Shown in pieces: positions 2,364 to 24,201 of a DNA stretch of 45,089 nucleotides (the first letter of the stretch is position 1; each line of letters opens with the position of its first letter). Under the pieces are notes generated by a model. It saw only the letters and a program-made list of their open reading frames with translations. It was not told the origin of the DNA and did not search any database. The stretch lies in NCBI GenBank assembly GCA_964359495.1, contig CAYHTG010000002.1, positions 8,943-54,031 of the forward strand, read 5' to 3'. Position numbers and translations under genes: made by a program. The stretch comes from an uncultured Candidatus Peribacteria bacterium. GTDB lineage: Bacteria > Patescibacteriota > Gracilibacteria > UBA1369 > 2-02-FULL-48-14.

Positions 2364-2375
2364 TGTAGCGAGTTT

Positions 2376-2807: not shown

Positions 2808-2865
2808 ATAAATGGGGTAAAAATGTAAAAGCATCTCTGTTATAGACCCTCGACCTTGATGAAAT

Positions 2866-2909
2866 CCTGAACTTTTCCTGAAACTTTCCTGAAATAAACC
2901 TGAACACTT
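2866..2909. repeat. four tandem 11-bp units, each starting with an exact CCTGAA (2866, 2877, 2888, 2899), in the ssb/ribE divergent intergenic region
   Basis: Read directly from the sequence: cctgaactttt / cctgaaacttt / cctgaaataaa / cctgaacactt. A degenerate unit (ccttgatgaaat) precedes them and the ribE ATG follows at 2917. Confidence 0.85.
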
Positions 2910-2916
2910 TCCTTCT

Positions 2917-3866: not shown

Positions 3867-3878
3867 AAATGTCAAAAC

Positions 3879-4157: not shown

Positions 4158-4310
4158 ATAATCATGTTATTTTAACATAAAATGGGGAGTTAGTCACGTC
4201 CTTATTGCCTGGTTTTTTATTCCCTTATCCTTAAAATAGATTAAATAGTACACAGTCGTTGTGGCCTTCAGCCACGTTATTGCTTAGCCTTCGTTTCACT
4301 ACGGCTTACC

Positions 4311-6295: not shown

Positions 6296-6306
6296 ATTGT
6301 TCTGGC

Positions 6307-7953: not shown

Positions 7954-8174
7954 TGAATGAAATTGAGAGCTAAGGAGAGTCCTAAGAAAAGTGTCACCAA
8001 AACGATGGTACTTTGAGCAAGAATTTTTTCAGCTCCCCTTTTCTGTGTTTGGATGGGAGACCCCCCTATCCCTGAAATAGCTTCTCCAAGTCCACTCCCC
8101 CTTTCCTGGACAAGAATGAGGAGCACTAGGAGAACGGCCAGTACAAGTTGTGTAATGAGGAGTGTGGTTTGCAT
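7950..8174 (-). CDS. secG: preprotein translocase subunit SecG
   Basis: 74 aa with two TM helices. LLVLLILVQERGSGLGEAISG matches the SecG signature. It overlaps the downstream gene by 4 nt. Confidence 0.8.
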   Translation of the reverse strand: MQTTLLITQLVLAVLLVLLILVQERGSGLGEAISGIGGSPIQTQKRGAEKILAQSTIVLVTLFLGLSLALNFIQ

Positions 8175-8186
8175 ATTATAAACGGC

Positions 8187-8552
8187 TTAATTATCTTTTA
8201 AAAACCAATGGATCAGCCAGTTGGCTATGCCAAAGATAAGGGCTGCCAGAAGATAAGTCAAGAAGCCGTCCACGGCCAGGTCTACACCCTCAAAATCCAT
8301 AACCGCTAAAAGGTAATCGGCCAGATAGAGCATGAGGGCATTCAAGACAATCAAAAAAAGACCTCCCGTAAGAAAAACCAAGGGAAAAGAAAGGATTTTT
8401 AAGATGGGTTTTAAAATGAAATTCAGTACGGTTAAAATGAGGCCTACAATAATAGGTGCCACTACGCCCCCTTCAAAAACGAAACCTTCCAAAACGCGAC
8501 TGACAAGGAAAAGTGCAAGGGCGTTGGCGAGGATGGTGGCGATGATACGCAT
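8187..8552 (-). CDS. small polytopic membrane protein (DUF360/YvlD, phage-holin-4-like family; recalled from memory)
   Basis: 121 aa and almost entirely hydrophobic, with about 4 TM segments. Its N-terminus is MRIIATILANALALFLVSRVL. Confidence 0.55.
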   Translation of the reverse strand: MRIIATILANALALFLVSRVLEGFVFEGGVVAPIIVGLILTVLNFILKPILKILSFPLVFLTGGLFLIVLNALMLYLADYLLAVMDFEGVDLAVDGFLTYLLAALIFGIANWLIHWFLKDN

Positions 8553-8575
8553 GGATTGTTGGTTTGGATAAAAAT

Positions 8576-11500
8576 TTAGGCCTTTCTTACGGCAAGTTTA
8601 GCTGAGAACCCTTCGATATTGAAATCTTTTTCTAAATCCCACTCAAAATTACCCCCTTGCATCAGTTCCTCCGCCAAGGTTTCTTCGCGAATGATCCCGG
8701 CAAATTGAGTCACCGCAGCTTCCAACTTACCTTCACTTTTGACTTGAGCATGGATACGATCGCTCACTTGGTAACCTGCTTCTTTGCGCAGATCTTGAAG
8801 ATGACGTACCACTTCCCGCATGAGACCTTCGAGCTCGAGCTCTTCCGTGAGATTTAAATCAAGAGAAACCACCGTGCCATCCTCAGACTCAATATCTATG
8901 CCTTCCTTCCCTTTATAAGCCATCTCGACTTCATTGGGTTCTAAAGTGAAACCGGCCACCACCACTTTTCCGTTTTCCAAAACCTTAAAATTTCCACTTT
9001 TTGCTTCCCGTATGATTTTTTGAACTTCTTTCCCATATTTTGGACCCAAGAGTTTTGCGTTCGGCAGGGCGACGAAATCGGCCAAGTCTCCCGCATTTTC
9101 CAATATTTCGAGTTCTTTAACATTCAGTTCTTCAAGAATCACTTCTTTTTGAAGGGTTACTTTTTCGGGATTCACGGATTTAGGAAGTCCGATGATCACT
9201 TTTTGCAAAGGCTGACGAACGCGAATTTTTTTCTTTCCACGAATGGCGTGACCTAAGTTCACAATTTGCCTAGCCAAATGGATTTCCTCATTAAGTCCCT
9301 GATCAATTTTTTCTTCTTCGGCTTTGGGCCAGTCAGAGAGGTGCACCGATTCTTGCTCCGTTAGATTTCTGTAGATTTCATCAGCGAGAAAAGGCATAAA
9401 GGGAGCCAGGAGCTGTGAAAATTTTACTAAAACTTCGTATAAAGTGCTGTAAGCGCAGAGTTTATCTCCATCATTTTCCGATTTCCAGAAACGACGACGA
9501 CTACGCCTGACGTACCAGTTTGAAAGGTCGTCTACAAAATCCAGCATGGGACGGGTTGCTTTGGTGAGGTTGTAGTTGTCCATGTTTTCCGTGACTTCTT
9601 TAATCAAGTCATTGAGACGAGAAAGAATCCAAAGGTCGAGTTTGTGAGTACTGTCTATTTTTAAGCTCGGCTGCGCCGAGTAACCATCAATATTCGCGTA
9701 AGTCACAAAAAAGCTATAGGTGTTCCAAAGGGTAAGAGTGAATTTCTTAACAAGTTCATCTACATGTTGTTCGGAAAAACGCACATCTTCCGCAAGAGGC
9801 GCTGTGGAGGTGTAAAGAAACATGCGGGTGGAATCCACACCCTTCTCTTCGAAAAGGAATTTGGGGTCGGGATAGTTTTTCTTTCGTTTGGAAAGTTTTT
9901 CTCCGTCAGCGGCAAGGAGAATCCCGTTCACAATGACGTTTTTAAAGGCCGGTTTGTCGAACAAAATGGTCGCGAGCACATGAAGGGTGTAAAACCATCC
10001 CCGAGTTTGATCGACTCCTTCGGCAATGAAGTTGGCCGGAAAATTATTTTCAAATTCTTCTTTGTTCTCGAAAGGATAGTGGAGCTGAGCGTAAGGCATG
10101 GCTCCCGATTCAAACCAACAATCGAGGACTTCAGGGATGCGCTGCATCATCCCGCCGCATTTTGTACAAGGAAACGTGACTTCATCAATATAGGGTTTAT
10201 GCAAATCGACTTCCCCCTCCCGCATGGGAACTTTTCCACTGCGCGCTTTCAGTTCTTCAATGGAACCAAGGCACTCTTGCGCCTCGCACTGTTCGCACTC
10301 CCAAATTGGAAGAGGCGTCCCCCAAAAACGATTCCTTGAAATATTCCAATCACGAACGTTTTCGAGCCATTTCCCAAAACGGCCTTCTTTAATATGATCG
10401 GGCTGCCAATGAATTTTTTTGTTGTTGGCGATGAGTTTATCCTTAATATCCGTCACTCGAATGAACCAAGCTTTGGTGGCATAATTGAGAAGCGGCGTGT
10501 CGCAACGCCAGCAATGAGGGTAGCTGTGACGAATATTTTCTTTTTTAAACAATTTCTCGCGTACCTCCATATCCTCGGCGAGGTTTTGGTCTTGAGTTTT
10601 TGCAAATTTACCCGAAAAATTTCCTACCGTTGCATCATAAAGCCCATCCATGGAAACATTAAGAATGAGCGGAAGATTGTGCAGTTTTGCGGCTTCCATG
10701 TCGATTTCTCCAAAAGCGCCGTTGATGGTCGCAATTCCCGTTCCATCTTCATCGCTCACATAATCGGTGGCGACGGTGTGAAAAGCTTTTTCTGATTTCT
10801 GAACCTCGGGATGAGAATTGTAATAATCAAAAACATGTTTGTATTTTTTCCCAATAATTTTCTCGCCTTTGAAGTGCTCAATGATCTCATACTCTGCAGG
10901 GGGCAGATGAGCGAAGGCCCAAGGAACTCGTTTTTCCGCAAGTATGAAATTTCCACGGGGTGTCCGAACCTTAACGTAATCGATGTCTTTTTTTACGGCC
11001 AGCCCCATGGTTGAAGGGATGCTCCATGGGGTCGTGGTCCAAGCAATGAAAAAAGTACCCGGCTCTTCTTCAAGTTCAAATTGTGCGATCACTGAAAGGT
11101 CCGTGACATCTTTGTAGCCGAGAGAAACTTCGAAATTCGAAAGCGGCGTGACGCAACGAGGGCAAACGTGCATGGCTTTAAAATCCTGATACATCATTCC
11201 TTTGTCCCAAATCTGCTTGAAGACCCACCAAATCGATTCCATGTAGTTCGCGTTCAAAGTCGCATAGCCATGCTCAATATCCACCCAACGAGCCAAGCGC
11301 TCCAGGAGTTCATTCCACTGCTCGGTATAACGAAAAACACTTTCGCGACATTTACCATTAAAAGTTTCAATGCCCATGGCTTCGATGTCTTTCCGTCCGT
11401 TTAAGCCCAAGGCTTTTTCAATTTCGTATTCCACGGGAAGCCCATGACAATCCCAGCCGTTCACACGAGGGACATAGTAGCCCCGCATAGTGAAATACCG

Positions 11501-11749: not shown

Positions 11750-12742
11750 ATGAAAAAACCAAAAATTTGTCTCCTCTTCTGTGGTGGAACCATTGGGATG
11801 GTGCGCAATTCAAAGACAGGAGTCCTGGAACCGGCGCAAGACGCGTCCGAGATTTTACGGCTTTTTCCGGAACTGCAGAAAATCCTCCAGTTTGATTTTA
11901 AGGTTTTAGTGAATATTGACAGTTCGAACATGGATCCTGAGATTTGGACGCAAATTGCAAAGAAAATTCACAGTCTTTACGATCAGTATGATGGATTTGT
12001 AGTGGCTCATGGAACGGATACCATGGCCTACACGGCAAGTGCGATGTCTTTCGCTTTGCAAAATTTAAATAAACCAATAGTTTTTACCGGGTCTTTGGTC
12101 CCTTTGAGTGAAATTGGTTCAGACGGAAGGAATAATTTGATTTACGCTTGTCTCACCGCCACCCTGGATATTGCTGAGGTTTGCATCGTTCTTTCGAATC
12201 ATATTATTCGAGGGAATCGAGCTAAAAAATTCCATGAATCGTTCTCGGCTTTGTTCCACTCCCCCAACTACCCTGTTCTTGGCGAACTCGGTCGTCCGAT
12301 TAAACTGAATGATTGGAGACTCAAACGACGCGACAGAAAACTACACTACCAGCCTTTATTCGACACTAAAATCTCTGTCTTAAAACTTTTCCCCGGTTTT
12401 GATCCTGAAATTATAGACAAAGTGTTGGAACGAAAAGCTCATGGCATTATTTTAGAGGGATTTGGTCCCGGGAACGTCCCCTCCAATATTATTTCAAAAA
12501 TTGAAAAATGTACCAAGCAAGGCGTGCCCTTAGTCTTGGCCAACCAAATGGAGAATGGAGTGACTAACCTTGCCTCTTACGCCGTGGGTTATCAAGCGGA
12601 GCAAGCCGGCGCACTGAGTTCCAAGGACATGACTACCGAATCCACCGTGAGCAAACTCATGTGGGTTTTAGCTCAAACACGAAAACTTTCTGAAATTCGT
12701 AGCCTCATGGAAAGCGATTTGGCCGGAGAAATGAGTGCATAA
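11750..12742 (+). CDS. type I L-asparaginase family protein
   Basis: ICLLFCGGTIGM (catalytic Thr motif) and VVAHGTDTMAYTA (second Thr motif). The ORF is 330 aa and lies divergent from ileS across a 42-bp spacer. Confidence 0.85.
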   Translation: MKKPKICLLFCGGTIGMVRNSKTGVLEPAQDASEILRLFPELQKILQFDFKVLVNIDSSNMDPEIWTQIAKKIHSLYDQYDGFVVAHGTDTMAYTASAMSFALQNLNKPIVFTGSLVPLSEIGSDGRNNLIYACLTATLDIAEVCIVLSNHIIRGNRAKKFHESFSALFHSPNYPVLGELGRPIKLNDWRLKRRDRKLHYQPLFDTKISVLKLFPGFDPEIIDKVLERKAHGIILEGFGPGNVPSNIISKIEKCTKQGVPLVLANQMENGVTNLASYAVGYQAEQAGALSSKDMTTESTVSKLMWVLAQTRKLSEIRSLMESDLAGEMSA

Positions 12743-12878: not shown

Positions 12879-13121
12879 ATGGAAAAAATAATCTCTTTTC
12901 AAAGATTTATTATCGAACTGCTGGCCGTGCAGTTGCCCAAACTCAACTTGAGCGAGCTTGAGGTTTTAGGCACTCAGGTGGCGATTTACTCTTATTTTGA
13001 GAACAACAATTCGCTCGAAAAAATTTATTTTGAGATTTTGGATTATTGCGATGAGAACGAAAAATTGAGTGTTTTGCTCCCTAAAATTGAAGACTTTTAC
13101 TCTCAAACCCTCGATTCATGA
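12879..13121 (+). CDS. hypothetical small acidic protein, translationally coupled to the giant ORF
   Basis: The ORF ends in ATGA, overlapping the giant-ORF start at 13118. I chose the ATG at 12879 (MEKIISFQRF..., 80 aa). ATG 12861 and the track start 12819 remain possible. I recognise no family. Confidence 0.4.
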   Translation: MEKIISFQRFIIELLAVQLPKLNLSELEVLGTQVAIYSYFENNNSLEKIYFEILDYCDENEKLSVLLPKIEDFYSQTLDS

Positions 13122-16100
13122 GCGCCAATTCGAGTGTTTCATTGGATTACTACCACGATCTGGAAGGAGAGATCGCTCAGCTTAAAGCTTTTGCCGAGCC
13201 TTTGATGGAGGAAGTGAAAGTAACGCCCCTCATGCCGGTTATTAATCGTATCATTAACCTGAAGGATAGGCTCCTCGGCCTCAGCGAAGGAGAGCTTCAA
13301 TATGTGCAGGCCGAAGTGGCGGAGTGCAAGCGTTTGCTCGATGATATTTCCTACGAATACATCAAACAAATCATCACCAAACCCATTCCTTCGGATGTGT
13401 TTGGAGTCCTTTCCAGCGGCACAGAGTTCGAGAAAACCTTACGATCGGCAATTGGGAAAAAGATTTCTACCGGTAAGGGTGACCCTGAAGTTGCCATCAC
13501 ACCCGACCTGGTTGACGCTCTCACTCGCTACCGATTTTCGCTCGGAACTCCTCCCGTCACGCCCAAAGGGATCCAAACGGTTGAGAAAATTGTTTTTGGT
13601 GGAACTTTGCAAAATATTTATGCCTTTCGAGATCTCATCCGTTGCGATAGAGGGGTTTTTGATCGTTTCTTGGGTGCCGTCGATAGGCTCAATGAGCAAA
13701 GTACTCATTACACGACGGAAGCTGAAAAGCGAGATTTCAAAAAAAAGGCAATTGAGTTCCCCAATTTGGAAGGAGCTCGCGGTCTCACCAAAGCCATTGT
13801 GAGCGGAACGTCCGAAACCGCTCTTCGTTTGGTTAGGGAGCAGCTCTTCAGCAAACATGCGAATGGAAATTGTCCGGTACGAGTGATGGAAGAGGCGGAG
13901 CCTTTTACTCCTCATTTGATGCAAGAAATGAAAGCGGATAAACGATCCATGTTTATCGTGAAGGCAAGCTCCATTCCACATCACATTTTTACGGATGACG
14001 TTCTAAAAGAAGAATGGAAAGGACTTATCGGTCGTTTGGTTGTTATTGATGATTCCGACGCCGCAAAAAGATCGGGTACCGTTTTGGTTTACTCTCTTAT
14101 TCCGGAGGTCACCAGGTATTTGGAGCAATTCCATGTGAAAGATTCCGGAACGCCCGCCAACACGCAAATGAACCTTCGTCTGATTCTGGAGAATTTTAAA
14201 AATGGCGATATTGATCAACTCATTCAAAGTGTAAACGAAAAGGCCGCCCTCTTGGAAGCGGAAGGTGTGCATTTGCTTCCGCACGGAGAAGTTCGAAAAA
14301 AAGAATGGCAAAAAACAGGACAATTGGATTATATGAATTTGAAGAAATTCAAGCGCTTTTTGGAATTTGTGAAAAAAATGAAGTCGGGTGATTTTTCTGA
14401 AATTGGGGAAAATAATCGTCGTCTTGAGAGACGAACCGGTGAGCTCACGATGGATTATTTCTTCAAAGACTTAAAAGGTAAAGGGTATCGTGCCATTACT
14501 GTTCCTCAAGGTGGCGGTCGTCGTGAAATCGGACTTCCGGGACGCTTTCATTTGAAGGGTCACAATAAAAAAGTTGCCGACTTTAAAGGGCAAAAACTCC
14601 AGGCATGCAGAGAAAAACTCCTTGCATTAAAAAGAGATCTTGGAATACCCGAGGAGACCACGGCGGCGGAAGCGGCGGCTTTACAGCGCGCCTTGGACGC
14701 TCGAAGAAGTCCTCACCTTCCCCCTGAGGGAGAAGCCGTCAGTCGTATTGGCGCCAAAGTAAAAACCCGCGTCACGGAAGCCATTCATGAATCGGCGCTT
14801 CGATCGGACGTCGTTGTGAATGCCGTGATTGCCCGTATGGATGAGGTGCTTGGCGCCAATATTCCGGGTTTTATGAAAGGAAAAGTCACGAAACTTCTTC
14901 GAAGTGGTGGGATTGAAGCGGCGGCAAAAATGTTTGACCGTGGACAATTCAGAGCTGCGGCAAACCGTCTCAGAGCCTTGGGAGGGCGCATCAGAGTCGG
15001 GGCCGCCCATCTTGCCGAAAAAATTCAAACCCCTTTGGAAATAATTCGGTCTCGTTTGGAACCGGCTGATCTGGACTTGGTGGAACGTCTTCTGAATGAC
15101 ATTGAGAACGGGTCGTTTGAGCCGAGTCTTGCCTTGTCTGAGGTAAGCTGGACGGTGGGAGATGTTTTACGCGAAGAAGATTTCCCCAAAAAGAACTTTA
15201 TTAAAATTGAGTTGAACGGCGACGGATCGCAAAATCCCGATTCTCTTGAAAGACAATTGGAAGAAAAACGCCGAGCACTCGCCGAGTTTCCGGAACTCTT
15301 TGAGCTGTATTGCTCCAGTATATTGATTTACTTCAATGATCCGCACAATCCGACCTCTCAAGTGGCCAGCCCCCAAGTAAAGCTGAAACTGTTGGATCTT
15401 GCCTCCCGATACAACTTGGCTATTTTGGCCGATGAACCTTATCACAAACAAGTTTCCAAGAAAGTAAAAGACCGACAAGGCGATCCTTCTTTTGCCGAGT
15501 TTTACGAACGATACCGACCTCGTTTCCCCAATCCGGTTCGCATCTACGGCTCCATCTCAACGACGAAGTGGGCCATGGGAGCCGGGCGGCGCACGGGAGT
15601 GCTTCTGACGAATGACAACTCCGTGATGGAAGACGGAAAGAATTTTGAAGATTTTGTGGCCGAGAATATTGATGGCTGCAATGCCATGTCTCTGTACATG
15701 GACCAAGAAACTTTACTCATCGGTCTCCTGGTAAAAAGAGTTTGCAAACCCATTGAGGCTTACATTGATGTGACGAATCCTTACAATATCCTCAGTAATG
15801 CTCTTAATCCTTACGGTAATACTTGTGAGTTGCTTGATCAAATTCTCCATGAGAATTTTTCCGATCTAAACGCGGAAGATTTTAACGCTGCCATGTATTC
15901 ACTTCTTCTTGACTCTCGAAACAAGCTCGATCGACTTCAAGCACGTGGCGCTGAGCCTATGGATTACTATCAATTTTTGAGCGATCTTGTTTCAAAACTT
16001 AAAGAATTCCGGCTCGATAAACAAACTCAAAAAGACTCCGCGCAAAGGAGCCAGGCCGCATGGGAAGCCGTGAAGCGTTTGTCCGCAGAATTTCCAGGCC

Positions 16101-19100
16101 TTGAAGAACGGTGCATCGAGCCACAAGGTCCTTTTTATTTCTTGGTGGGTCTTGATCAAACGACCAATGATCCCGCGCTGCGGCCTTTTCTTTTGGCTCT
16201 GGCACGTGCTCGAAAAATTGAAGTTGTTCCACAGGCCAAAGGGTATGCTCGTTTTGCTTTCGGAGGTTTGGTGGATGGAACCGAGGAAGGATACAAGGAT
16301 TTTAGTTTGGGTATTGAAACGGATCTTCGTTTGCTTCTCAAATATTGGGATGAGTTCCAAGCCATTCGTGCTCGCTTGAACAAAGAAAAAGACCTGGATC
16401 CCATTAACAATGCGCTCAAGGAACTCTTCCCCGGCGGTGAAATTGATTTGGCGCGAACGATACAAGATAAAAGTGTGCTTCTTGAGCGTTTGCGCTCGAA
16501 CCCACGCACCGGAAAAGACAGACTCACCAATCGTTTTTCTCCGGCTGGTTCACAATACATGTCCAGCATTGAACCAGGCTCTCCGACCACCATTGTCACC
16601 ATTCGTGACGTCCAATGTCGAACGGCGGAAGATTTTATAAACAGCGAAGCTTTCCGTGATTTGTTCAATATTTTCTTGCTTCAAGTGAAAGGTCAAATTT
16701 CGGGCTTGGAGCAAATGGAAGACAGTGCCATTATCGCTCAATATGGCGCCGATGAATTTGCGAAACGCTTCGAATCCCGCAACTTCCAAAATGTTCGCCG
16801 TGATATTTTTGAAGAAATCGCCATTCGCGTCGCGAATTTGTGGTTTAACCCGAGTATGATCAAGATTTTGGGACTCAAAATTCCCGACGGTCTTTCAGCC
16901 TCGGACCAAGGAGATCTTTTGAGAGGAGCAGAAGTGAGAATTTCAGACTTTATCCAGACGATTATTCAAGCTTTTGTTAGTCCGGAGAAGGAGGCTCAAG
17001 TTCTCCAAGAAAGAATTGAAATGATCATTAAGGGCTTAAATCAAAAACTTCCTCAAGAAGATAGAGAAAAACTTCTGGTATACACTCGTGATTACGAATT
17101 GTTTTCAGCTTTTTTGAACAGTCTCGACGAAGATTTGGTTCCTCTGCATACGAAAGAAAGATTATTGGCTCTGACTCGAAAAGTCAGTTACCCTGCAAGT
17201 TTTCAAGCCGCTTATCCCACGGTTCGCGGCATCAAGGCCGATTCCGGTTTACAAGCATGGGCTCAAAAATTTATAGGCCGTGCGGAATTCGCCGGACAAA
17301 GCGTGGCTACCGATAGGTCCCCCGCCATGGTTACTCCCGGCACGGCTCGAGTGGCCGGTTATGAGCGAGGTATTTATCGCCGCGACGGAGACGGTAGTTC
17401 CGCTCCCGGGAAAGATTTTTTTAGAAAACGCTTGGGTGAATTTGCCGAAGTTATGAATCCCAAAGACTACGTGTGCAAAATGGTTCAAGTGGGTCCTACG
17501 CGACTCATGCTCGTAATGCACCGATCCTACAGCCACTACATGGTTCATGAACTTCAACTTTTCCCTCAATTCGATGTCTCTTTGGCCGAAATGCAAAATT
17601 TGAAGCCGGACGCCATCTGTTTTATGGGTATTCCCACTAAAACGATCGGGGAAGATTACAGAATCGGTAACTTTTTGGATGAAGATTCCGATGGAACTTC
17701 CATTCCGGTTTCCTGGGTTGATGCTGAGGACATTACCGATTACATGGGCTATTTTAAAAAACCCGTACTGACGGTGGCCAATGAACGGGTAAAAGCCGTC
17801 GGCGGAATGCCCGTTCATGGTTCAGCGCTCACCATTACGGCAAAGAACGGACTTCGTAAAACAGTGGTTATGGGAGGTGACAGCGGAACGGGTAAGTCGG
17901 AAACCATCATCGCGATGACCAATCAAATTATTGAGGGCCTTGGCGGTGCAGAAAATATTGAATCGGTGGAATTGCTCTCGGGAGACATGTTGTCTCTTTT
18001 CGAAGGTGAAGATGGGGAAATGTACATGATGGGAACCGAATCGGGAGATTTTATGCGTTTAACCGATATTCCCAAGGAGTGGCAGGAAAGGATGAGAGAC
18101 TGGATCAGTAGTTCAAGTAAAACCAACCTTGACGACAAAACCAATCCGAGAGCGACCATTAACGGTATCTGCGATCCCAATGTTTTTTTGAGTCCGGTTC
18201 GAGTGAATATCTTCGCCAATATCAATAATTTTGAAAAACCCGAAGGCGCGGCTTTTCAAGAGGACCGAGACCCTGCGAACTTGCTGCTCGATACTTATGT
18301 AAAAGGCTATCGCTGTGAAAAAGGTACCAGTGGAGATCAGCCCAATCTTTTTGCCAGCATCGAGCAGAGTAAAGTGCCTGACCGTGAGACATTGCTCACC
18401 AAATATAAGGAGGATTTGGATCGGCTTCTGGGTTGGAACCTTATTCTGGCAAAGACTGGAAAAGTAAAAACATCCATTCTTTCTTTCAAAGACGTTCCCG
18501 GTGAAGTGTTTAAGGCCAGTCAAATGGTGAAGGATCTTTTTGTCGGGAAGCATTGTGACTATAAAGACAAAGAGAAAAAGGAAGAAAAAAACTATACGAT
18601 TTTAGACGCTCGGTATGCAGTGCGCGAAAATCGTTTTTATGTCACGGTCAAAGATGAAGATACGGGTGCGACGGAGGAAAAACCTTTGGATCGAAACATT
18701 TTCGATGGAGTTTACAATCCCATTGCCAGCACCTATTGCGGAAATCCATTTGTTGATCCGCGCGGTATGGATTCCGTCTTGCGAAGATTTGCAGGGGTAA
18801 TGAAGAAAGCAGGCGTCATTACGGGTAACTTGTACACGGAGTTAGGTGTTGAAGGGGAAGAGCGCAGCGGTCCCGCACGAGCCGCTCAAGCGTTGATTGA
18901 GTTTATTGAAGAAGATCCTCGCATCAATGAACGTTTCCAGCGCAATAAAGATCGTGTTTCACGGGCGCTCACCACAAAATACGGAGCCGCCATTTTGGGG
19001 CAAGGCAGTATTCCTCAAGAAGTGGAGGCTCATAATCTTTATCTTCTGGAAAGACAGGAAAGCGATGCCGTTCATTTGGTGGACAGCGCGAGAAAAACCG

Positions 19101-19444
19101 TTCCCATTCGAACGCCTCACTACGAAAATGTCTCTGGAAGGTCTAAAAAAGAATTTGCGCCTTCTCTTGTTCGCCCGGAAATCGCAAAAATCATCAATGC
19201 GGTTTGTGAGGGTCCCGACGGCAAGGCTATCAATCTGGAGCATTTCGACCCTCCTCTAGAACGTTATGATTCCATTCAAACTTGGGACAACAAAGCCGAG
19301 CTCATTTATCAAATTTTGCTCATCAATGGTGTAATGCGGCTCGGGTACATCGAAGGCATTGTTCATCACCAAATCGCTGAAGTCAAAAAAGCTGAAAAGA
19401 TCGCTGAGGAATTAATGCGAAGTAGAAGTGTAAGTGCGGCCTAA
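13118..19444 (+). CDS. giant 2108-aa multidomain protein: central split aminotransferase class I/II-like fold plus an HprK/PEPCK-like P-loop kinase domain; the rest is unassigned
   Basis: A single uninterrupted ORF. Aminotransferase-like motifs: ITVPQGGGRRE (aa 460), FNDPHNPTSQV (aa 740), LADEPYHKQV (aa 772), SISTTKWAMGAGRRTGVLL (Lys817) and PQGPFYFLVG (aa 1002). Kinase-like motifs: VHGSALTI...VVMGGDSGTGKSETIIAM (aa 1566-1600). Confidence 0.85.
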   Translation: MSANSSVSLDYYHDLEGEIAQLKAFAEPLMEEVKVTPLMPVINRIINLKDRLLGLSEGELQYVQAEVAECKRLLDDISYEYIKQIITKPIPSDVFGVLSSGTEFEKTLRSAIGKKISTGKGDPEVAITPDLVDALTRYRFSLGTPPVTPKGIQTVEKIVFGGTLQNIYAFRDLIRCDRGVFDRFLGAVDRLNEQSTHYTTEAEKRDFKKKAIEFPNLEGARGLTKAIVSGTSETALRLVREQLFSKHANGNCPVRVMEEAEPFTPHLMQEMKADKRSMFIVKASSIPHHIFTDDVLKEEWKGLIGRLVVIDDSDAAKRSGTVLVYSLIPEVTRYLEQFHVKDSGTPANTQMNLRLILENFKNGDIDQLIQSVNEKAALLEAEGVHLLPHGEVRKKEWQKTGQLDYMNLKKFKRFLEFVKKMKSGDFSEIGENNRRLERRTGELTMDYFFKDLKGKGYRAITVPQGGGRREIGLPGRFHLKGHNKKVADFKGQKLQACREKLLALKRDLGIPEETTAAEAAALQRALDARRSPHLPPEGEAVSRIGAKVKTRVTEAIHESALRSDVVVNAVIARMDEVLGANIPGFMKGKVTKLLRSGGIEAAAKMFDRGQFRAAANRLRALGGRIRVGAAHLAEKIQTPLEIIRSRLEPADLDLVERLLNDIENGSFEPSLALSEVSWTVGDVLREEDFPKKNFIKIELNGDGSQNPDSLERQLEEKRRALAEFPELFELYCSSILIYFNDPHNPTSQVASPQVKLKLLDLASRYNLAILADEPYHKQVSKKVKDRQGDPSFAEFYERYRPRFPNPVRIYGSISTTKWAMGAGRRTGVLLTNDNSVMEDGKNFEDFVAENIDGCNAMSLYMDQETLLIGLLVKRVCKPIEAYIDVTNPYNILSNALNPYGNTCELLDQILHENFSDLNAEDFNAAMYSLLLDSRNKLDRLQARGAEPMDYYQFLSDLVSKLKEFRLDKQTQKDSAQRSQAAWEAVKRLSAEFPGLEERCIEPQGPFYFLVGLDQTTNDPALRPFLLALARARKIEVVPQAKGYARFAFGGLVDGTEEGYKDFSLGIETDLRLLLKYWDEFQAIRARLNKEKDLDPINNALKELFPGGEIDLARTIQDKSVLLERLRSNPRTGKDRLTNRFSPAGSQYMSSIEPGSPTTIVTIRDVQCRTAEDFINSEAFRDLFNIFLLQVKGQISGLEQMEDSAIIAQYGADEFAKRFESRNFQNVRRDIFEEIAIRVANLWFNPSMIKILGLKIPDGLSASDQGDLLRGAEVRISDFIQTIIQAFVSPEKEAQVLQERIEMIIKGLNQKLPQEDREKLLVYTRDYELFSAFLNSLDEDLVPLHTKERLLALTRKVSYPASFQAAYPTVRGIKADSGLQAWAQKFIGRAEFAGQSVATDRSPAMVTPGTARVAGYERGIYRRDGDGSSAPGKDFFRKRLGEFAEVMNPKDYVCKMVQVGPTRLMLVMHRSYSHYMVHELQLFPQFDVSLAEMQNLKPDAICFMGIPTKTIGEDYRIGNFLDEDSDGTSIPVSWVDAEDITDYMGYFKKPVLTVANERVKAVGGMPVHGSALTITAKNGLRKTVVMGGDSGTGKSETIIAMTNQIIEGLGGAENIESVELLSGDMLSLFEGEDGEMYMMGTESGDFMRLTDIPKEWQERMRDWISSSSKTNLDDKTNPRATINGICDPNVFLSPVRVNIFANINNFEKPEGAAFQEDRDPANLLLDTYVKGYRCEKGTSGDQPNLFASIEQSKVPDRETLLTKYKEDLDRLLGWNLILAKTGKVKTSILSFKDVPGEVFKASQMVKDLFVGKHCDYKDKEKKEEKNYTILDARYAVRENRFYVTVKDEDTGATEEKPLDRNIFDGVYNPIASTYCGNPFVDPRGMDSVLRRFAGVMKKAGVITGNLYTELGVEGEERSGPARAAQALIEFIEEDPRINERFQRNKDRVSRALTTKYGAAILGQGSIPQEVEAHNLYLLERQESDAVHLVDSARKTVPIRTPHYENVSGRSKKEFAPSLVRPEIAKIINAVCEGPDGKAINLEHFDPPLERYDSIQTWDNKAELIYQILLINGVMRLGYIEGIVHHQIAEVKKAEKIAEELMRSRSVSAA

Positions 19445-19465: not shown

Positions 19466-20086
19466 TCAACTCGGTTGGCTTTTCTGTAGGGCTTCCGCTA
19501 TTTTCACAAACTCCGGATCCAAATTGAGGCGACTTTCTTCCGGAAATTCCTGACCCTGGTATTTGGAGCTTTTCTTCATGTTATAAGGGACGTCGGCCGG
19601 CGAACTCATGGGCTCGAACGCAAGCTGGCACACGCGCATTCCCGGGTAGAGGGCGACCGGCATCCTGTTGATGTTGGTGATTTCGAGCGTGATGTTTCCT
19701 TCAAAACCCGCGTCCACGAAACCGGCGGTGGAATGGATAATAATGCCGAGGCGACCGAGGGAGCTGCGACCTTCCACGCGAGCCACAATATTATTGGGGA
19801 GTTTTACTTTTTCAACGGTGACACCGAGCACAAAGTCGCCAGGGTGTACGATGAACGGTTCCGCGATATCCGTGACTTCAATTTGTTTGGTCATACCTTC
19901 GAAGGAGCGCATTTTCAGAGGATCAAGAACGGGAAATTTGCTGTGTTCATAGACTTTAAAAAATCTCCCCAAACGAAGGTCGAGGCTCGATGCATGGATG
20001 TTATCCATGTGGTCGTTTTCCGGAGAAGTTATAACAATTTCTCCAGCTTTTATGAGTCGTTTGATATCGCGGTCGGAGTAAATCAT
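19466..20086 (-). CDS. dcd: dCTP deaminase
   Basis: MIYSDRDIKRLIKAGEIVI..., ASSLDLRLG, VEGRSSLGRLGIIIHSTAGFVDAGFEG and ITLEI are dCTP deaminase/dUTPase-fold motifs. The ATG is at 20086. Confidence 0.9.
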   Translation of the reverse strand: MIYSDRDIKRLIKAGEIVITSPENDHMDNIHASSLDLRLGRFFKVYEHSKFPVLDPLKMRSFEGMTKQIEVTDIAEPFIVHPGDFVLGVTVEKVKLPNNIVARVEGRSSLGRLGIIIHSTAGFVDAGFEGNITLEITNINRMPVALYPGMRVCQLAFEPMSSPADVPYNMKKSSKYQGQEFPEESRLNLDPEFVKIAEALQKSQPS

Positions 20087-20102
20087 CACGCGAAGCGTTA
20101 AT

Positions 20103-21443
20103 CTATAAACTAGCGGCCAGTCCAATGTACCCTTCCGGAGTGAGCTTCAGCAAGCGCTTTTTAGCGTCTTCGGGAATGTCGAGTTCATCAACAAAGTTAG
20201 CGATTTTTTTCTGACTTACTTTCTCACCGCGTGTTAGTTCTTTTAACTGCTCGTAGGCATTTTGAATTCCGTAGCGTCGCATCACGGTTTGAATGGCTTC
20301 CCCCAAAAGTTCCCAGTTTTCGTCGAGGTCACTACGAAGCTTTGCTTCATTTACTTCGAGTTTACCGAGTCCCTTTTGAATGCTTTTGTAAGCAAGGAGG
20401 GAATACCCGAGAGCGGTTCCTATGTTTCGGAGCACCGTGCTATCGGTGAGGTCGCGCTGCATGCGGGAGATGGGAAGTTTTTCGCTGAAATGAGTGAATA
20501 AGGCGTTGGCAAGTCCCAAGTTCCCTTCGGCATTTTCAAAATCAATGGGATTCACTTTGTGCGGCATGGTGGATGAACCCACCTCTCCTTTCACTGTCTT
20601 TTGGTTGAAGTAACCCATGGAGATGTAAGTCCAACTGTCACGGCAAAAATCGATCAAAATGGTGTTTGTGCGGCGCAAATTATCAAAAATTTCCGCCATG
20701 TAATCGTGGGGTTCAATTTGCGTGGTGTAGCGTTGCCACTCGAGGCCCAAATCTTCGACAAATTGACGAGAAGCCGCCGCCCAATCCACCTCCGGGTATG
20801 CCACTGTATGCGCATTGAAATTACCCGTTGCTCCATTCATTTTTCCTAAAAACTGAGTTTTTGAAAGTTGTTCATACTGACGGTAAAGACGGGATCCCAC
20901 ATTTTTGAATTCTTTCCCCACCGTGGTTGGCGAGGCCGCTTGGCCGTGCGTGTGGCTCATCATGGGCACTTTTCGATAGGTCTCCGCAAAGTCTTTAAAT
21001 CCGGCTAAAACTTTTTCCAGGTTGGGCAGGAGAATGGTATGTACTCCGCCTTTCAGCATTTGAGCGTAAGCCAAATTATTGATGTCCTCCGAGGTGCAGC
21101 CGAAATGAACAAAAGAAATGAGGTCTCCGCGTTTTAGAACCTTGAGTGCTTTTTGTAAAAAATATTCCACGGCCTTTACATCATGGTTCGTGGTTTTTTC
21201 GATTTCTTTCACCTCCTCGGCAAAGGCATCTTGAAAATCGGTATAGAGCTTTCGGAGGGCGGCCACTTCTTTCTCATGTAGACGTTCAGTCCCTTTCAGT
21301 TTGAGTGTATTGACAAGAAAAATGAGCCATTCCACTTCCACTGCAATACGACTTCGAATGAGTGCGGCTTCGGAAAAAAATCGAGCGAGTTCGCCCACTT
21401 TTTCAACGTAGCGTCCGTCCAATGGAGAGAGTGCTTTGTTCAT
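20103..21443 (-). CDS. purB: adenylosuccinate lyase
   Basis: LSPLDGRY at the N-terminus, the HxxxTSxD-like FGCTSEDINN, and the signature loop GSSTMPHKVNP. I chose the ATG at 21443. The alternative GTG at 21455 would abut purE. Confidence 0.95.
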   Translation of the reverse strand: MNKALSPLDGRYVEKVGELARFFSEAALIRSRIAVEVEWLIFLVNTLKLKGTERLHEKEVAALRKLYTDFQDAFAEEVKEIEKTTNHDVKAVEYFLQKALKVLKRGDLISFVHFGCTSEDINNLAYAQMLKGGVHTILLPNLEKVLAGFKDFAETYRKVPMMSHTHGQAASPTTVGKEFKNVGSRLYRQYEQLSKTQFLGKMNGATGNFNAHTVAYPEVDWAAASRQFVEDLGLEWQRYTTQIEPHDYMAEIFDNLRRTNTILIDFCRDSWTYISMGYFNQKTVKGEVGSSTMPHKVNPIDFENAEGNLGLANALFTHFSEKLPISRMQRDLTDSTVLRNIGTALGYSLLAYKSIQKGLGKLEVNEAKLRSDLDENWELLGEAIQTVMRRYGIQNAYEQLKELTRGEKVSQKKIANFVDELDIPEDAKKRLLKLTPEGYIGLAASL

Positions 21444-21454
21444 TTTTATACGCA

Positions 21455-21925
21455 CTAAAGTGTGCAGGGTTTAGTATCAAATAAATTTTGAACCACTTTG
21501 GTATGATTACGAACTTTTTTTGCGAGATCCTTGTCGGTCAAAGCTAAAATGCGAGCCACCGCTTGACCGGCATTTTTCGGATCCACTACTGTAAGAGCCG
21601 GAGTTTCACTGGGCATTTGCAAGGAGGAATGAATGTTGGCCAAGTAATCGGCGTAGTCTTTAAAGGGGGGACAAGCCAAAACCGGAAAATGCGTATTGGC
21701 GGAAACCAATCCACTGAGGGCGTTGGATCGACCGGCTATGGTCACAAAAACCACACTTTCTTTTTTTTCATTAAAATGTTTAATGATTTCCAGCGTTTTT
21801 TCAGGAACTTTGTGCGCGGAGGAAATATAAATTTCATGTTTCACACCGTAATCGTCCAAAATTTTGGCGATTTCCTTAGCGTGATCGAGGTCGGATTTTG
21901 AGCCGAGTATAAAAGGGACAATCAT
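21455..21925 (-). CDS. purE: 5-(carboxyamino)imidazole ribonucleotide mutase / AIR carboxylase catalytic subunit
   Basis: ILGSKSDLDHAKEIAKILDDYGV...ISSAHKVPEKT and IAGRSNALSGLVSA are PurE motifs. The ORF is 156 aa. Confidence 0.9.
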   Translation of the reverse strand: MIVPFILGSKSDLDHAKEIAKILDDYGVKHEIYISSAHKVPEKTLEIIKHFNEKKESVVFVTIAGRSNALSGLVSANTHFPVLACPPFKDYADYLANIHSSLQMPSETPALTVVDPKNAGQAVARILALTDKDLAKKVRNHTKVVQNLFDTKPCTL

Positions 21926-22890
21926 AGGAAATAAGGTTTAAGATTAGTTTCAATGCGAGAAAGAACGTCGCCGGGCTCGGCCGTGAAGCTTTGTCCCGTG
22001 ATCATTTCATAAGCTTGAATGTATTTCTCGGCAGTTTCACAAATAACCTCCTGTGGAATTTCCGGGATTTCCCCTTCCCCGGTATAGCCTTTGTTGGCGA
22101 GCCAGAGTCGCAAAAATTCTTTATTGATGTTATCGGGTTCTTGGCTGGTGGCCATTTTTTCTTCGTAAGTCGCGGCAATCCAGAACCGTGAAGAGTCGGG
22201 CGTGTGGATTTCATCGATCACCACAATGTCCCCTTCCGGGGTGAAGCCGAATTCGTATTTGGTGTCCACCAGAATCACTCCTTGGCGAGCGGCCACTTCC
22301 ACTCCTCTGGCGTAGAGCATCAGCGCATAATTGGAGAGTTTTTCCCATTGCTCGGCGGTGAGCAAGCCTTGCTTCAGAATCTCTTCGGGCGTGAGGTTGG
22401 CATCGTGATCGCCGTGTGCCGCTTTGCTGGTTGGGGTGATGATAGGAGCGCGCAAGCGCTCGTTCTTCTTGAGCCCCTCCTGTAAAATATTACCTCCGAT
22501 ATTCCTTCCCCCGTTCGCATAAATCGTCCACGCAGAAGTTGAGGTGGAGCCGGTGATGTAACCGCGCACAATCATCTCCACCATGATGGGTTTGCACTCC
22601 TTCCCCACAATCACTTGCGGATCGGGATAGGATTCGATGTAATTCGGGCAAATGTCCTTCGTATTTTCAAACCAAAACTTCGTGAGCGCGTTGAGCACTT
22701 GACCCTTGAACGGAATGAGCGCGATGACTCGGTCGAAGGCGGAAAGGCGGTCACTGGTTATGAGGATGCGGCGCTTGCCTTGAGTGTAGTTGTCACGAAC
22801 CTTCCCCTCGTAATAGCTTCCGAGATTTGTAAAACTCGTGCCTTTCAAAACATGAGGGATTTGAGAGGCAATGACGTCGCGAGGGATCAT
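21922..22890 (-). CDS. purC: SAICAR synthetase (long form)
   Basis: YEGKVRDNY, LITSDRLSAFD, ILVDTKYEFG and EIHTPDSSRFW are PurC motifs. It overlaps purE by 4 nt. Confidence 0.9.
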   Translation of the reverse strand: MIPRDVIASQIPHVLKGTSFTNLGSYYEGKVRDNYTQGKRRILITSDRLSAFDRVIALIPFKGQVLNALTKFWFENTKDICPNYIESYPDPQVIVGKECKPIMVEMIVRGYITGSTSTSAWTIYANGGRNIGGNILQEGLKKNERLRAPIITPTSKAAHGDHDANLTPEEILKQGLLTAEQWEKLSNYALMLYARGVEVAARQGVILVDTKYEFGFTPEGDIVVIDEIHTPDSSRFWIAATYEEKMATSQEPDNINKEFLRLWLANKGYTGEGEIPEIPQEVICETAEKYIQAYEMITGQSFTAEPGDVLSRIETNLKPYFL

Positions 22891-23034: not shown

Positions 23035-24201
23035 ATGAAAAGAGCCTTCAAAGTTAACCGTTTTCCATTTGCTTGTCACCCCAAGCTGCTTTTCGACCTT
23101 GCAAATAAAGAATATCTAACGAGATTCCCTATTCAATCTCTGCCATTTTCACACTGCATCGTATATGTAGTCGTGAGCGAAGACAAAAAGATTTCGTTAA
23201 AATTTTGTTTTCCCCAGGATGTCGATTTAATTTTGAGTTTCATACATAAGAGACCTGGCGGAGCGCATGCAGGTGAAGATACCTTAAACACAGACATTCG
23301 AGAGGTTACAGATATCCACATTCCAAATTTTGAGGAAAAATATTTTTTTGACTTTGCTTTTTTCATTTTTGATTTTAACACTGGAAAATATTGGTCTACG
23401 TTATTTTTAACCCAAGAGATATGTCCGGACTTAAGATTTTACTTGTCAAAAAAAAGAAAGGATCGGTATAAAAAAATTGGCAAGGATTTGGCAAAAAAAT
23501 ATAATACCACCCTTATCTTAGGACACACGAATCTTGCCTCTGGCAAACTACGCAGATCGAACGGCATCTCCAAATTGATTAGTAGTGGTTGGATCCCCAC
23601 AATCTCTCTTTTCCCACAACCCTACGGTGAGATGATAAATGTGATTGAAAAAGAAAACGATTTAGAGAAAGTGAACACGTTGATTTGTAAGGTTTTCCGA
23701 GAGAATCAATTTTTAGAAAAAATCTTAGAAAGATGGCTGGCCTCTAGTTTAACGAAAAAGAGAATCAGAGCTCTTCTGGCTATCGTTGATGATTTTAAAA
23801 GAGAAGACTATCTCTCCTGTATTTATGTCCTTTTACCTCAGGTAGAGGGGTTAATTACTGATCATATTAAAAGAAGGGGTCAAATACCTGGTGCAAAAAT
23901 CGAAGACCGGTTTAAGCAATTTGGCGATATCATTAATTCTGAAACTTATAACACGAAAATGACAAAATATTTAACTATGATTTTCATTCGTAGTCTTAAA
24001 AAGACTTTCTATAAAACTTGGTACCCTTACATCTATAGAGGAAAGGCATACCGTGGAGCTCACATAGTACCACAGAGGCACTTACTGCTTCATGGTGAAT
24101 TTAAACTGGGTTACTTTACAGAAGCAAATTGTATAAAACTCATGTGTATTCTTGATAATATTATTTTGTTGTCTCTCAGGGACAGAGAACTGACTCGCTA
24201 A
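23035..24201 (+). CDS. hypothetical protein with a C-terminal HEPN-like domain (putative Abi-type RNase)
   Basis: 388 aa and AT-rich. The C-terminal helical region contains PQRHLLLHGE, that is R348-x4-H353, which matches the HEPN Rx4-6H motif. It is preceded by ALLAIVDDFKREDYLSCIYVLLPQVEGLI. I do not recognise the N-terminal ~230 aa. Confidence 0.55.
   Translation: MKRAFKVNRFPFACHPKLLFDLANKEYLTRFPIQSLPFSHCIVYVVVSEDKKISLKFCFPQDVDLILSFIHKRPGGAHAGEDTLNTDIREVTDIHIPNFEEKYFFDFAFFIFDFNTGKYWSTLFLTQEICPDLRFYLSKKRKDRYKKIGKDLAKKYNTTLILGHTNLASGKLRRSNGISKLISSGWIPTISLFPQPYGEMINVIEKENDLEKVNTLICKVFRENQFLEKILERWLASSLTKKRIRALLAIVDDFKREDYLSCIYVLLPQVEGLITDHIKRRGQIPGAKIEDRFKQFGDIINSETYNTKMTKYLTMIFIRSLKKTFYKTWYPYIYRGKAYRGAHIVPQRHLLLHGEFKLGYFTEANCIKLMCILDNIILLSLRDRELTR

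Follow-up and report, generated by a model that had tools for sequence, protein, structure and literature searches.

How a nucleotide-binding loop of the type found in HPr kinase (HprK) and phosphoenolpyruvate carboxykinase (PEPCK) comes to reside in the interior of a giant bacterial protein, and which reaction it might serve there, is the question raised by the locus investigated in this study. This locus is contained in a stretch of 45,089 nucleotides from an uncultured Candidatus Peribacteria bacterium (contig CAYHTG010000002.1 of assembly GCA_964359495.1, positions 8,943 to 54,031), which we refer to at its full length as the window. An open reading frame (ORF) at positions 13118-19444 of its forward strand encodes a protein of 2,108 residues, for which the original prediction had proposed a P-loop of the HprK/PEPCK-type in the segment 17780-18110 and, as a consequence, an activity in phosphotransfer rather than as a motor. 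Our analysis has revealed that this P-loop segment is part of a whole cryptic PEPCK-like enzyme, which is fused to an aminotransferase whose fold is itself split by an insertion. In a search of 5.8 billion proteins, we have found 75 homologues of about 2,000-2,240 residues each, which are named in their source databases either 'aminotransferase class I/II-fold PLP-dependent enzyme' or 'hypothetical' and nothing else. They fall into two clades, one from Peregrinibacteria with 35-88% identity in the search table and a second at about 30% identity.

The peptide on which the prediction was based had been read correctly, as 17780-18110 translates in frame within the giant ORF to NERVKAVGGMPVHGSALTITAKNGLRKTVVMGGDSGTGKSETIIAM...LLSGDMLSLF, and the codon of the Walker lysine, Lys1593, is an AAG located at 17894-17896. 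This residue is part of the Walker A motif GGDSGTGKSE (residues 1586-1595, nucleotides 17873-17902), where GDSGTGKS (residues 1587-1594) conforms to the canonical pattern GxxxxGK[ST]. In view of the composition of the giant protein, this generic pattern would be expected 0.07 times by chance, and a single Walker A motif on its own would thus constitute weak evidence; the corresponding expectation for GxSGxGKSE is 1.3e-5. That the P-loop is real is settled by its conservation. The sequence GDSG[TAV]GKS is found at the homologous site in 74 of the 75 homologues, the exception being a fragment of 1,238 residues that does not contain the region, and in an alignment of 73 sequences extending down to 27% identity, G-D-S-G-x-G-K-S-E is invariant. 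The flanking motifs D-Y-x-G-x-x-K-K-P-x-L-T-x-x-N-E, P-x-H-G and G-D-M are in the same alignment either invariant or at least 90% conserved, and the same holds for E-x-G-D-F-x-R and N-x-R. Searches with phmmer against PDB sequences, carried out with the segment of 110 residues and with the whole protein, gave no useful match for the P-loop, and the peptide GEMYMMGTESGDFMRL (window 18017-18064) produced spurious matches to de novo designed beta-trefoils and to the INI1 DNA-binding domain. Single-sequence searches are thus uninformative for this P-loop, whose analysis required profiles and a model of the structure.

The relationships of the region are illustrated in an AlphaFold2 (AF2) model of residues 1381-2108, which was built on the alignment of 73 sequences (with model residue 1 corresponding to residue 1381) and which reaches a predicted local distance difference test score (pLDDT) of 91.1 and a predicted template modelling score (pTM) of 0.91. 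In a comparison to the PDB with Foldseek, all of the 50 top matches are PEPCKs (E 1.4e-12 to 8.5e-11, probability 1.00), aligned over 380-580 columns with template modelling scores, normalised by target, of 0.35-0.54. These matches comprise ATP-type enzymes (from E. coli, Thermus, Actinobacillus and Anaerobiospirillum) as well as GTP-type enzymes (from rat, chicken and Mycobacterium). As defined by the AF2 model, Foldseek and hhalign, the PEPCK-like phosphotransferase module extends from about residue 1395 to 1950 (17300-18967) and belongs to the C-terminal third of the polypeptide. Its core, as assigned by DSSP, consists of a strand at 1564-1575 that carries His1567, a second strand at 1580-1586, the P-loop, a helix at 1593-1606 and a strand at 1614-1621, followed by the invariant Asp1623. 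In the numbering of the model, the strand 184-195 with the invariant His187 is connected by a turn of four residues to the strand 200-206, an arrangement in which a hairpin is suggested by DSSP, the P-loop occupies 207-214, and the Walker B aspartate (model Asp243) tops the strand 234-241 directly after the P-loop helix 213-226. The order beta1 - P-loop - alpha1 - beta2 - Asp, where the aspartate is not located on beta3 or beta4, is the hallmark of the PEPCK/HprK group (PMC7758060). The proposed type of the P-loop has thus been borne out at the level of the fold, and so has the placement of LLSGDM at the position of the HprK motif LvaDD, with Asp1623 at the tip of its strand. The assignment to phosphotransfer instead of a motor function equally agrees with the succession of strand, P-loop, helix, strand and aspartate and with structural matches that are confined to PEPCKs, and neither Foldseek nor the profiles returned an ABC, AAA+ or RecA-like protein as best match. 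We are therefore nearly certain that the module is a phosphotransferase of the PEPCK/HprK fold.

The same relationship is found at the level of sequence profiles, where it is distant. On the window protein, the Pfam family PEPCK_ATP (PF01293) matches residues 1540-1594 with an E value of 0.0077 and 15.4 bits, which increase to 20.5 bits on the isolated domain, compared to a cut-off of 26.5, and the NCBIfam PEPCK subfamily NF006821 matches with an E value of 0.0018 and 17 bits compared to a cut-off of 369. PEPCK_ATP was the only recurrent family in a Pfam scan of 16 members, with matches in 13 of them. When a profile of residues 1400-1770 derived from 16 sequences was searched against PDB sequences, Thermus PEPCK was found first (E 0.02), with tDYlGylKKPlLtvaNe..PvHGs..GDSGtGKs of the profile aligned to tKYAGEIKKSIFTVMNY..PMHASAN..GLSGTGKT of the enzyme. 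The comparison with E. coli Pck by hhalign gave an E value of 3e-4 with 16 sequences, of 7.5e-5 with 68 effective sequences and of 4e-6 after removal of an insertion of 115 residues, then covering residues 62-471 of Pck, and an alignment of three PEPCK sequences including two of the Thermotoga-type was matched over 388 columns (E 2.8e-8, probability 95%). HprK chains, on the other hand, are matched in the PDB profile search over just 22 residues surrounding the P-loop (E 0.26). The Pfam family Hpr_kinase_C has no match on the window protein at E<=1 and is found below its cut-off in 3 of the 16 members (best E 4.2e-4), which places it second among related families, and for the motif Y-x-G-x-x-K-K, no HprK sequence or family was matched in either the PDB profile search or the Pfam scan of the 16 members. 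Since about 390 columns shared with PEPCK contrast with about 22 residues shared with HprK, the sequence comparison characterises the module as PEPCK-like rather than HprK-like, and as this similarity extends along the entire PEPCK chain, N-terminal domain included, it is a full PEPCK homologue. At the same time, its scores fall below the cut-offs of both Pfam families, and it thus constitutes a new family within the PEPCK/HprK superfamily instead of a member of PF01293 or PF07475. The Ser-Glu pair that follows the GK of the P-loop is indeed the HprK-type variant, as had been noted, although it is not diagnostic for HprK in this case, since it is also present in a family of stand-alone PEPCK-like proteins described below. 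A sub-threshold match of PTS_EIIB to TNQIIEGLGGAENIES (residues 1603-1618, nucleotides ~17924-17971), just after the P-loop helix, was observed with an E value of 0.014 (0.0056 on the domain alone) and in 2 of the 16 members; it is the sole PTS-related signal among the window ORFs scanned and is probably due to chance.

Equivalences to residues of E. coli PEPCK were obtained from profile alignments, and the residues of the window protein listed in the following are either invariant or at least 90% conserved. In the invariant motif DYMGYFKKP (residues 1541-1549, 17738-17764), which was aligned with HMMER and hhalign to the Thermus and E. coli enzymes, Tyr1542, Gly1544 and Lys1547/Lys1548 correspond to Tyr207, Gly209 and Lys212/Lys213. 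His1567 of the invariant PVHGS (residues 1565-1569, 17810-17824), located on the strand preceding the P-loop strand, corresponds to His232, and within the Walker A motif, Ser1588, Lys1593 and Ser1594 take the positions of Ser250, Lys254 and Thr255. Further downstream, the motif GTESGDFMR (residues 1639-1647, 18032-18058), with its E, G, D, F and R invariant or at least 90% conserved, aligns Glu1641-x-Gly-Asp-Phe-x-Arg1647 with Glu-Gly-Gly-Cys-Tyr-Ala-Lys288, whereas NPRAT (residues 1676-1680, 18143-18157), with invariant N and R, aligns Asn1676-x-Arg1678 with Asn331-x-Arg333. The segment EKGTSGDQP (residues 1734-1742, 18317-18343; R, E, T, S, D and P invariant) is aligned to the lid-loop region TERGITEPTP, and ASTYCGNPF to FSACFGAAF. 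For SGDM (residues 1621-1624, 17978-17989), where G-D-M is invariant, the register is ambiguous by one residue: an hhalign alignment to the E. coli sequence alone places GDM on G267-D268-D269, whereas the DDM found in the stand-alone relatives aligns to DD(I/E) of PEPCK. We prefer the latter register, as it includes the stand-alone family and Thermotoga-type PEPCK, and Asp1623 is thus probably equivalent to Asp269, with Gly1622 replacing Asp268.

These positions coincide with active-site positions in the E. coli enzyme, where crystallography has defined Lys213, His232 and Asp269 as ligands of Mn2+, Arg65, Tyr207 and Arg333 as contacts to the substrate and CO2, and Ser250, Lys254, Thr255 and Lys288 as contacts to the phosphates. 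Equivalents of the Mn2+ site are kept in the giant protein, Lys1548 and His1567 by alignment and Asp1623 through the register of the stand-alone DDM, and the counterpart of Arg65 is probably Arg1438, which is located within the at least 90% conserved stretch FFxxRLxxF. Judged from these alignments, the module appears to have retained the residues for binding of Mn2+, of the nucleotide phosphates and of a C4 acid, its enolate and CO2, with the Arg65 equivalent being probable, and the catalytic residues do not vary even between clades with just 27% identity. The titles of PDB entries among the Foldseek matches name the mutants R65Q, Y207F, G209S/N, K212I, K213S, S250A and D269N. Two elements distinguish the module from the common core. 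A beta-rich insertion of about 115 residues (~1750-1865, 18365-18712; strands within model residues 391-476) is found in the giant family and is absent from PEPCK and the stand-alone relatives; it could either replace or gate the lid. The C-terminal helical extension (residues ~1951-2108, 18968-19441; model helices 554-727) follows the end of the hhalign match to PEPCK, which stops near residues 1940-1950.

The second part of the fusion is contained in the N-terminal 1,100 residues, which form a complete class I aminotransferase of the aspartate-type that appears, based on its sequence, to be catalytically competent. The Pfam family Aminotran_1_2 (PF00155) matches residues 722-783 (E 6.5e-6, 26 bits compared to a cut-off of 19.7), and in a comparison of the family profile to the PDB, the aspartate aminotransferase (AspAT) 1o4s was matched in two pieces (E 5.6e-9). 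An AF2 model of residues 1-1200 (pLDDT 86) was found by Foldseek to match class I aminotransferases with chains of about 400 residues in their entirety, over 410-440 columns, among them TM1131, MppQ, kynurenine aminotransferase II, Thermus AspAT and LysN, and both halves around the helical insertion thus belong to a single fold. The first part of this fold, as defined by the AF2 model and Foldseek, comprises residues ~115-345 (13460-14152) and includes the loop VSGTSETA (residues 228-235), which presumably binds the phosphate of the pyridoxal phosphate (PLP) cofactor. The second part, defined by the Pfam and PDB profile matches, comprises residues ~670-1080 (15125-16357) and contains the PLP-site residues N744, D772, Y775 and K817, the Schiff-base lysine, as well as R1045 for carboxylate binding, all of them invariant, and R825 with at least 90% conservation; NDPxNPT (residues 740-746) and T816-K817 are invariant as well. 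Both parts are separated by an all-helical insertion of about 320 residues (~348-665, 14159-15112), whose helices extend from 348-359 through 652-664 according to DSSP. Nowhere in the protein is conservation lower than in this insertion, which may serve as an oligomerisation or scaffold element; it holds a stretch of low confidence at residues 533-542.

In species-level genomes, the giant gene is found in three groups, the Peregrinibacteria/Peribacteria, the Bacteroidota and the Ignavibacteriales. Cultured carriers among the Bacteroidota are Alistipes hominis, Marinilabilia salmonicolor, Anaerophaga thermohalophila and Marinilabiliaceae bacterium ANBcel2, and the gene is also present in a metagenome-assembled genome (MAG) assigned to Paludibacter propionicigenes. 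One Ignavibacteriales MAG (L029) contains it as two ORFs about 600 nt apart, 2331-4853 and 5469-8969, encoding 841 and 1,167 residues, which could be explained by a true split of the gene, by a frameshift or by an error in the assembly. A HMMER scan with the C-terminal module identified 169 proteins in 1.84 billion cluster representatives. Those that are not giant are mostly stand-alone proteins of about 540-600 residues and about 30% identity, which carry the same motifs and no family annotation. Another candidate for a stand-alone C-terminal module, P0078 with 718 residues, was rejected as a fragment cut by the end of its contig. The stand-alone relatives (P0099, about 100 representatives) come from Firmicutes, Thermotogota, Planctomycetota, archaea and candidate division FCPU426. 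In these proteins, all Pfam and NCBIfam families remain below their cut-offs, the best model being NF006821 with sub-threshold values down to E 1e-7, and the family bridges the giant module (E 6e-50) and PEPCK (E 1.4e-9).

Genes of related metabolism are found next to several of these stand-alone genes. In a Thermotoga MAG (L033, 6398-7990 and 8122-9624), the stand-alone gene adjoins a bona fide PEPCK that scores above the cut-off of NF006821, in an FCPU426 MAG (L038), genes for a bona fide PEPCK, the PEPCK-like protein and aspartate ammonia-lyase (628 bits compared to a cut-off of 510) follow each other on one strand at 4416-5984, 6134-8053 and 8120-9556, and in Thomasclavelia, the stand-alone relative is located next to a gene for a class I aminotransferase. 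No partner is dominant among 110 neighbouring genes from 75 metagenome loci, where Aminotran_1_2 comes first with 4 genes, followed by SAICAR synthetase and SIR2 with 3 each and OTCase/ATCase with 2. The SIR2-family gene adjoins the stand-alone gene in 3 of the 75 loci and is in one of them (L006, 2081-2845) located immediately downstream, overlapping the end of the gene. The small ORFs located upstream of stand-alone genes in these loci have common housekeeping functions and no relationship to the small frame preceding the giant gene in the window.

This small frame (12879-13121, forward strand) encodes an acidic protein of 80 residues with 14 Asp and Glu compared to 6 Lys and Arg, and its stop codon overlaps the start of the giant ORF (ATGA). 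It is in turn preceded by a gene for a type I L-asparaginase (11750-12742, forward strand), which is matched by the Pfam families Asparaginase and Asparaginase_C and by TIGR00519 with 321 bits compared to 260.5. The order of asparaginase, ORF of about 80 residues and giant gene is found in the window and in five further Peregrinibacteria loci whose other neighbours differ. In L003, L004/L005, L010, L011 and the P0025 locus, the asparaginase is located upstream of the giant gene, and homologues of the small ORF with 43-90% identity directly precede the giant gene in L003, L004, L010 and L011. A diverged copy was detected in L012 (E 2e-6); in one Peribacteria locus, a diverged small ORF is present and the asparaginase is absent. 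The small proteins share the motif [SNT]-[ED]-L-E-x-[LI]-G, have no Pfam or PADLOC match and are not found in Bacteroidota loci; they could act as subunit, chaperone or regulator. The idea that the small ORF is the counterpart of the additional N-terminal residues of the Bacteroidota proteins was discarded, as a hidden Markov model of the small ORF matches no giant homologue.

Collectively, the explanation that we favour is that the P-loop belongs to a PEPCK-fold module whose fusion to an aminotransferase establishes a route from aspartate via oxaloacetate to phosphoenolpyruvate (PEP), a proposal to which we assign about the same chance of being right as of being wrong. The more general notion that the module acts on a small molecule, either a 2-oxo-acid or an enolate, as kinase and not on a protein is probable, whereas oxaloacetate and PEP in particular are less likely than not to be its substrates. 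In the proposed mechanism, the type I asparaginase that is encoded upstream in the majority of the Peregrinibacteria loci analysed would convert asparagine to aspartate, which would at the PLP site of the aminotransferase half be turned into oxaloacetate. The PEPCK-like half would then convert oxaloacetate to PEP and CO2 by decarboxylation and phosphorylation of the Mn2+-bound enolate by a nucleoside triphosphate, and the fusion would permit the unstable oxaloacetate to pass directly between the two sites. The pathway might also operate in the reverse direction, in which case aspartate would be made from PEP and CO2. Enzymes that handle aspartate, oxaloacetate or PEP recur in the vicinity of the family, as illustrated by the asparaginase, the aspartate ammonia-lyase and PEPCK. 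Our analysis shows the P-loop motif with its conservation, the fold, the equivalent residues by profile alignment, the fusion of the domains and the gene neighbourhoods; the catalytic competence of the giant protein, the identity of its substrates, the direction of the reaction and any channelling are at this stage what we infer.

Several observations weigh against this proposal. The reaction is a prediction from sequence and structure models, and the module scores below the PEPCK cut-offs of Pfam (15-20 compared to 26.5 bits) and NCBIfam. It has exchanged Asp268 to Gly, Thr255 to Ser and Lys288 to Arg, the assignment of Arg1438 as equivalent of Arg65 rests on a stretch of the alignment with low confidence, and in light of the domain of 115 residues that is inserted directly after the lid loop, its specificity may differ from that of PEPCK. 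As for the aminotransferase, aspartate is at present its putative substrate. The Bacteroidota loci contain neither the asparaginase nor the small ORF or any other conserved neighbour, and in 21 loci from Bacteroidota and Ignavibacteriales, no conserved partner was found, with Band_7 in 6 of 67 neighbouring genes and the remainder scattered. Bacteroidota usually also have a canonical pckA, which argues against simple redundancy with PEPCK. Finally, the location of stand-alone relatives beside true PEPCK genes suggests a related but different reaction, and the enrichment of aminotransferases among their neighbours (4 of 110) is weak and derived from loci that are not independent.

Many of these observations would be accommodated if the module catalysed PEPCK-like phosphorylation, with or without decarboxylation, on another substrate, such as a different 2-oxo acid or a related small molecule that is made or consumed by the fused PLP domain, which we regard as possible though not probable. 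In a variant of this scenario, the side chain of an amino acid would be phosphorylated and the product processed by the PLP domain. The protein would in this view be a two-step enzyme of a novel pathway instead of a route from aspartate to PEP. The fold and motif evidence from AF2, Foldseek and hhalign supports such a function too, as do the scores under the PEPCK family cut-offs, the glycine at the position of Asp268, the insertion after the lid loop and the presence of the giant gene in Bacteroidota in the absence of aspartate-related neighbours. The stand-alone relatives next to true PEPCKs suggest non-redundant functions, and the structural matches of the aminotransferase vary in their specificity (kynurenine/aminoadipate, MppQ, succinyl-diaminopimelate). 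It is opposed by the invariance of the residues that in PEPCK interact with the C4 acid, CO2 and the enolate, namely the equivalents of Tyr207, Lys212/213, Arg333 and probably Arg65, and by the recurrence of aspartate-linked genes in the surroundings.

A protein kinase resembling HPr kinase, which would phosphorylate Ser or Thr residues in the protein of 80 residues or in another protein at the expense of ATP or pyrophosphate and thereby act as regulatory switch, appears improbable. In favour of it, the P-loop GxSGxGKSE is the same as in HprK, Hpr_kinase_C is recognised weakly in a few members, and the coupling of the small ORF to the giant gene by its ATGA overlap is conserved in Peregrinibacteria. 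Moreover, HprK-like kinases that phosphorylate peptides are known from lasso-peptide clusters. However, the resemblance to HprK is confined to the surroundings of the P-loop, whereas that to PEPCK includes the N-terminal domain with its Y-x-G-x-x-K-K motif, and no HPr or PTS gene was found among the window ORFs scanned against Pfam. The suggestion that the protein of 80 residues is the substrate of phosphorylation has found no support, as the Bacteroidota and stand-alone relatives lack this ORF and still retain every catalytic motif, and as none of its Ser, Thr or Tyr residues is invariant, the YS-x-FE motif being lost in the L012 copy so that no invariant phospho-acceptor is evident. Somewhat less probable still is a regulatory or scaffold domain that senses nucleotides by binding ATP, GTP, oxaloacetate or PEP without turnover and that controls the aminotransferase allosterically. 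Such a role would be in line with the divergence below family thresholds, with the large helical insertions and extensions, which suit assembly, and with stand-alone relatives next to true PEPCK that could be regulatory paralogues; yet pseudoenzymes usually lose some of their catalytic residues, whereas in this case all of them and not just those for binding, including both metal-site residues and the lid-loop motif, are invariant across deeply diverged clades. A generic P-loop NTPase of the AAA+, ABC, RecA or STAND type working as motor or switch is effectively refuted. The scattered sub-threshold matches of NACHT, AAA_16, AAA_29 and ABC_tran concern only the Walker A region, and together with the P-loops of Rab and septin found in the PDB, these matches cover just 25-40 residues, whereas no such protein is among the top 50 structural matches and the Walker B aspartate, carried by the strand that immediately succeeds the P-loop helix, is located unlike that in canonical P-loop NTPases.

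The remainder of the window is an ordinary segment of a Peregrinibacteria chromosome, with genes for the isoleucyl-, valyl- and aspartyl-tRNA synthetases, DnaE, PGK and enzymes of purine synthesis. Directly 3' of the giant gene, at 19466-22890 of the reverse strand, are genes for a dCTP deaminase, a purB-like adenylosuccinate lyase, purE and purC, with purA following further on (28150-29433, forward strand); purC and purA are the aspartate consumers among these purine genes, and the arrangement is also found in L003 and not in the loci of more distant homologues. Three ORFs of the forward strand (23035-24201, 41122-41826 and 41834-42427, encoding 388, 234 and 197 residues) match no Pfam family at E<=0.001. 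A gene for a C-5 cytosine DNA methylase is located at 42924-43916 (forward strand), an ORF at 33756-34844 (reverse strand) contains both a Sigma70 region 4 and a HARE-HTH domain, and a single tRNA gene at 35031-35111 (forward strand) is the sole Rfam match in the window. A reading of the locus in terms of anti-phage defence was rejected, as window proteins have no PADLOC match and weak matches to 'mad8' were obtained in two relatives only (P0057 and P0099, E 4e-4 and 2e-3), where they probably reflect the shared P-loop of the HprK/PEPCK-type and not a role in defence. A search for RNA-seq runs that hold the window sequence found none, and the sequence was recovered only in DNA metagenomes from groundwater and aquifers.

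The favoured route from aspartate to PEP has implications for the metabolism of these organisms. A genome study of Peregrinibacteria has described that asparaginase and aspartate aminotransferase are present, that PEPCK is absent and that oxaloacetate has no use (PMC4736985), and the proposed route fits this published reconstruction of Peribacteria. In its most far-reaching form, which we consider attractive but doubtful, the giant protein would be a self-contained machine for the conversion of aspartate to PEP, combining in one chain a transaminase with an unrecognised and deeply divergent class of PEPCK and possibly channelling oxaloacetate between both. If this were the case, the giant proteins and their stand-alone relatives would constitute a fourth lineage of the PEPCK-type beside the ATP-, GTP- and pyrophosphate-dependent enzymes, and they would supply the missing step in Peregrinibacteria, where bacteria with reduced genomes could then ferment asparagine and aspartate. 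Irrespective of the substrate, a PEPCK-like module of about 700 residues escapes Pfam and NCBIfam at their cut-offs, and a new family with fused and stand-alone forms is added to the PEPCK/HprK topology group, for which ECOD lists only three families (PMC7758060). The fusion of a class I aminotransferase with a PEPCK-type module, which points to a coupling of amino-acid and C3/C4 metabolism, is not described in the annotations or the literature searched, where only general papers on PEPCK, P-loops and Peribacteria surfaced and no description of the family was found. Since the gene is present in cultured Bacteroidota, the hypothesis is accessible to ordinary biochemistry and genetics without the need to culture an organism of the candidate phyla radiation.

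Among known systems, the module is thus most instructively compared to the ATP-dependent PEPCK (PckA, EC 4.1.1.49, PF01293), with which it shares the two-domain fold (Foldseek E 1e-12) and about 390 collinear columns. Its motifs follow in the same order, Y-x-G-x-x-K-K, H, G-x-S-G-T-G-K-[ST] and the aspartate at the tip of a strand, succeeded by E-x-G-x-[YF]-x-[KR], N-x-R, the lid loop and [FA]-S-x-C-[FG]-x-x-F, and the Thermotoga-type subfamily NF006821 is the top-scoring PEPCK model for giant proteins and stand-alone relatives alike. In contrast to PckA, with which it is only about 12-16% identical, the module remains below family cut-offs, carries Gly, Ser and Arg in place of Asp268, Thr255 and Lys288, contains the beta insertion after the lid loop and a helical C-terminal extension of about 160 residues, and is embedded behind an aminotransferase in a chain of 2,108 residues. 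With the HPr kinase/phosphorylase (PF07475, TIGR00679), it has in common the identical P-loop G-x-S-G-x-G-K-S-E, the histidine on the preceding strand and the aspartate that tops the following strand, whereas the sequence that precedes the P-loop is aligned with the N-terminal domain of PEPCK and with nothing HprK-like. The aminotransferase half matches class I enzymes (AspAT, kynurenine/aminoadipate and the TM1131 group) over their whole chain with the PLP residues kept, and it differs from them by the helices of about 320 residues that split its fold, by a helical N-terminus of about 110 residues and by the fused kinase-type module. The nearest kin of this module are the stand-alone PEPCK-like proteins of about 560 residues, which have every motif in common with it but lack the aminotransferase and the insertion of 115 residues, contain DDM instead of GDM, and carry an unrelated N-terminal region of about 220 residues in mostly housekeeping neighbourhoods.

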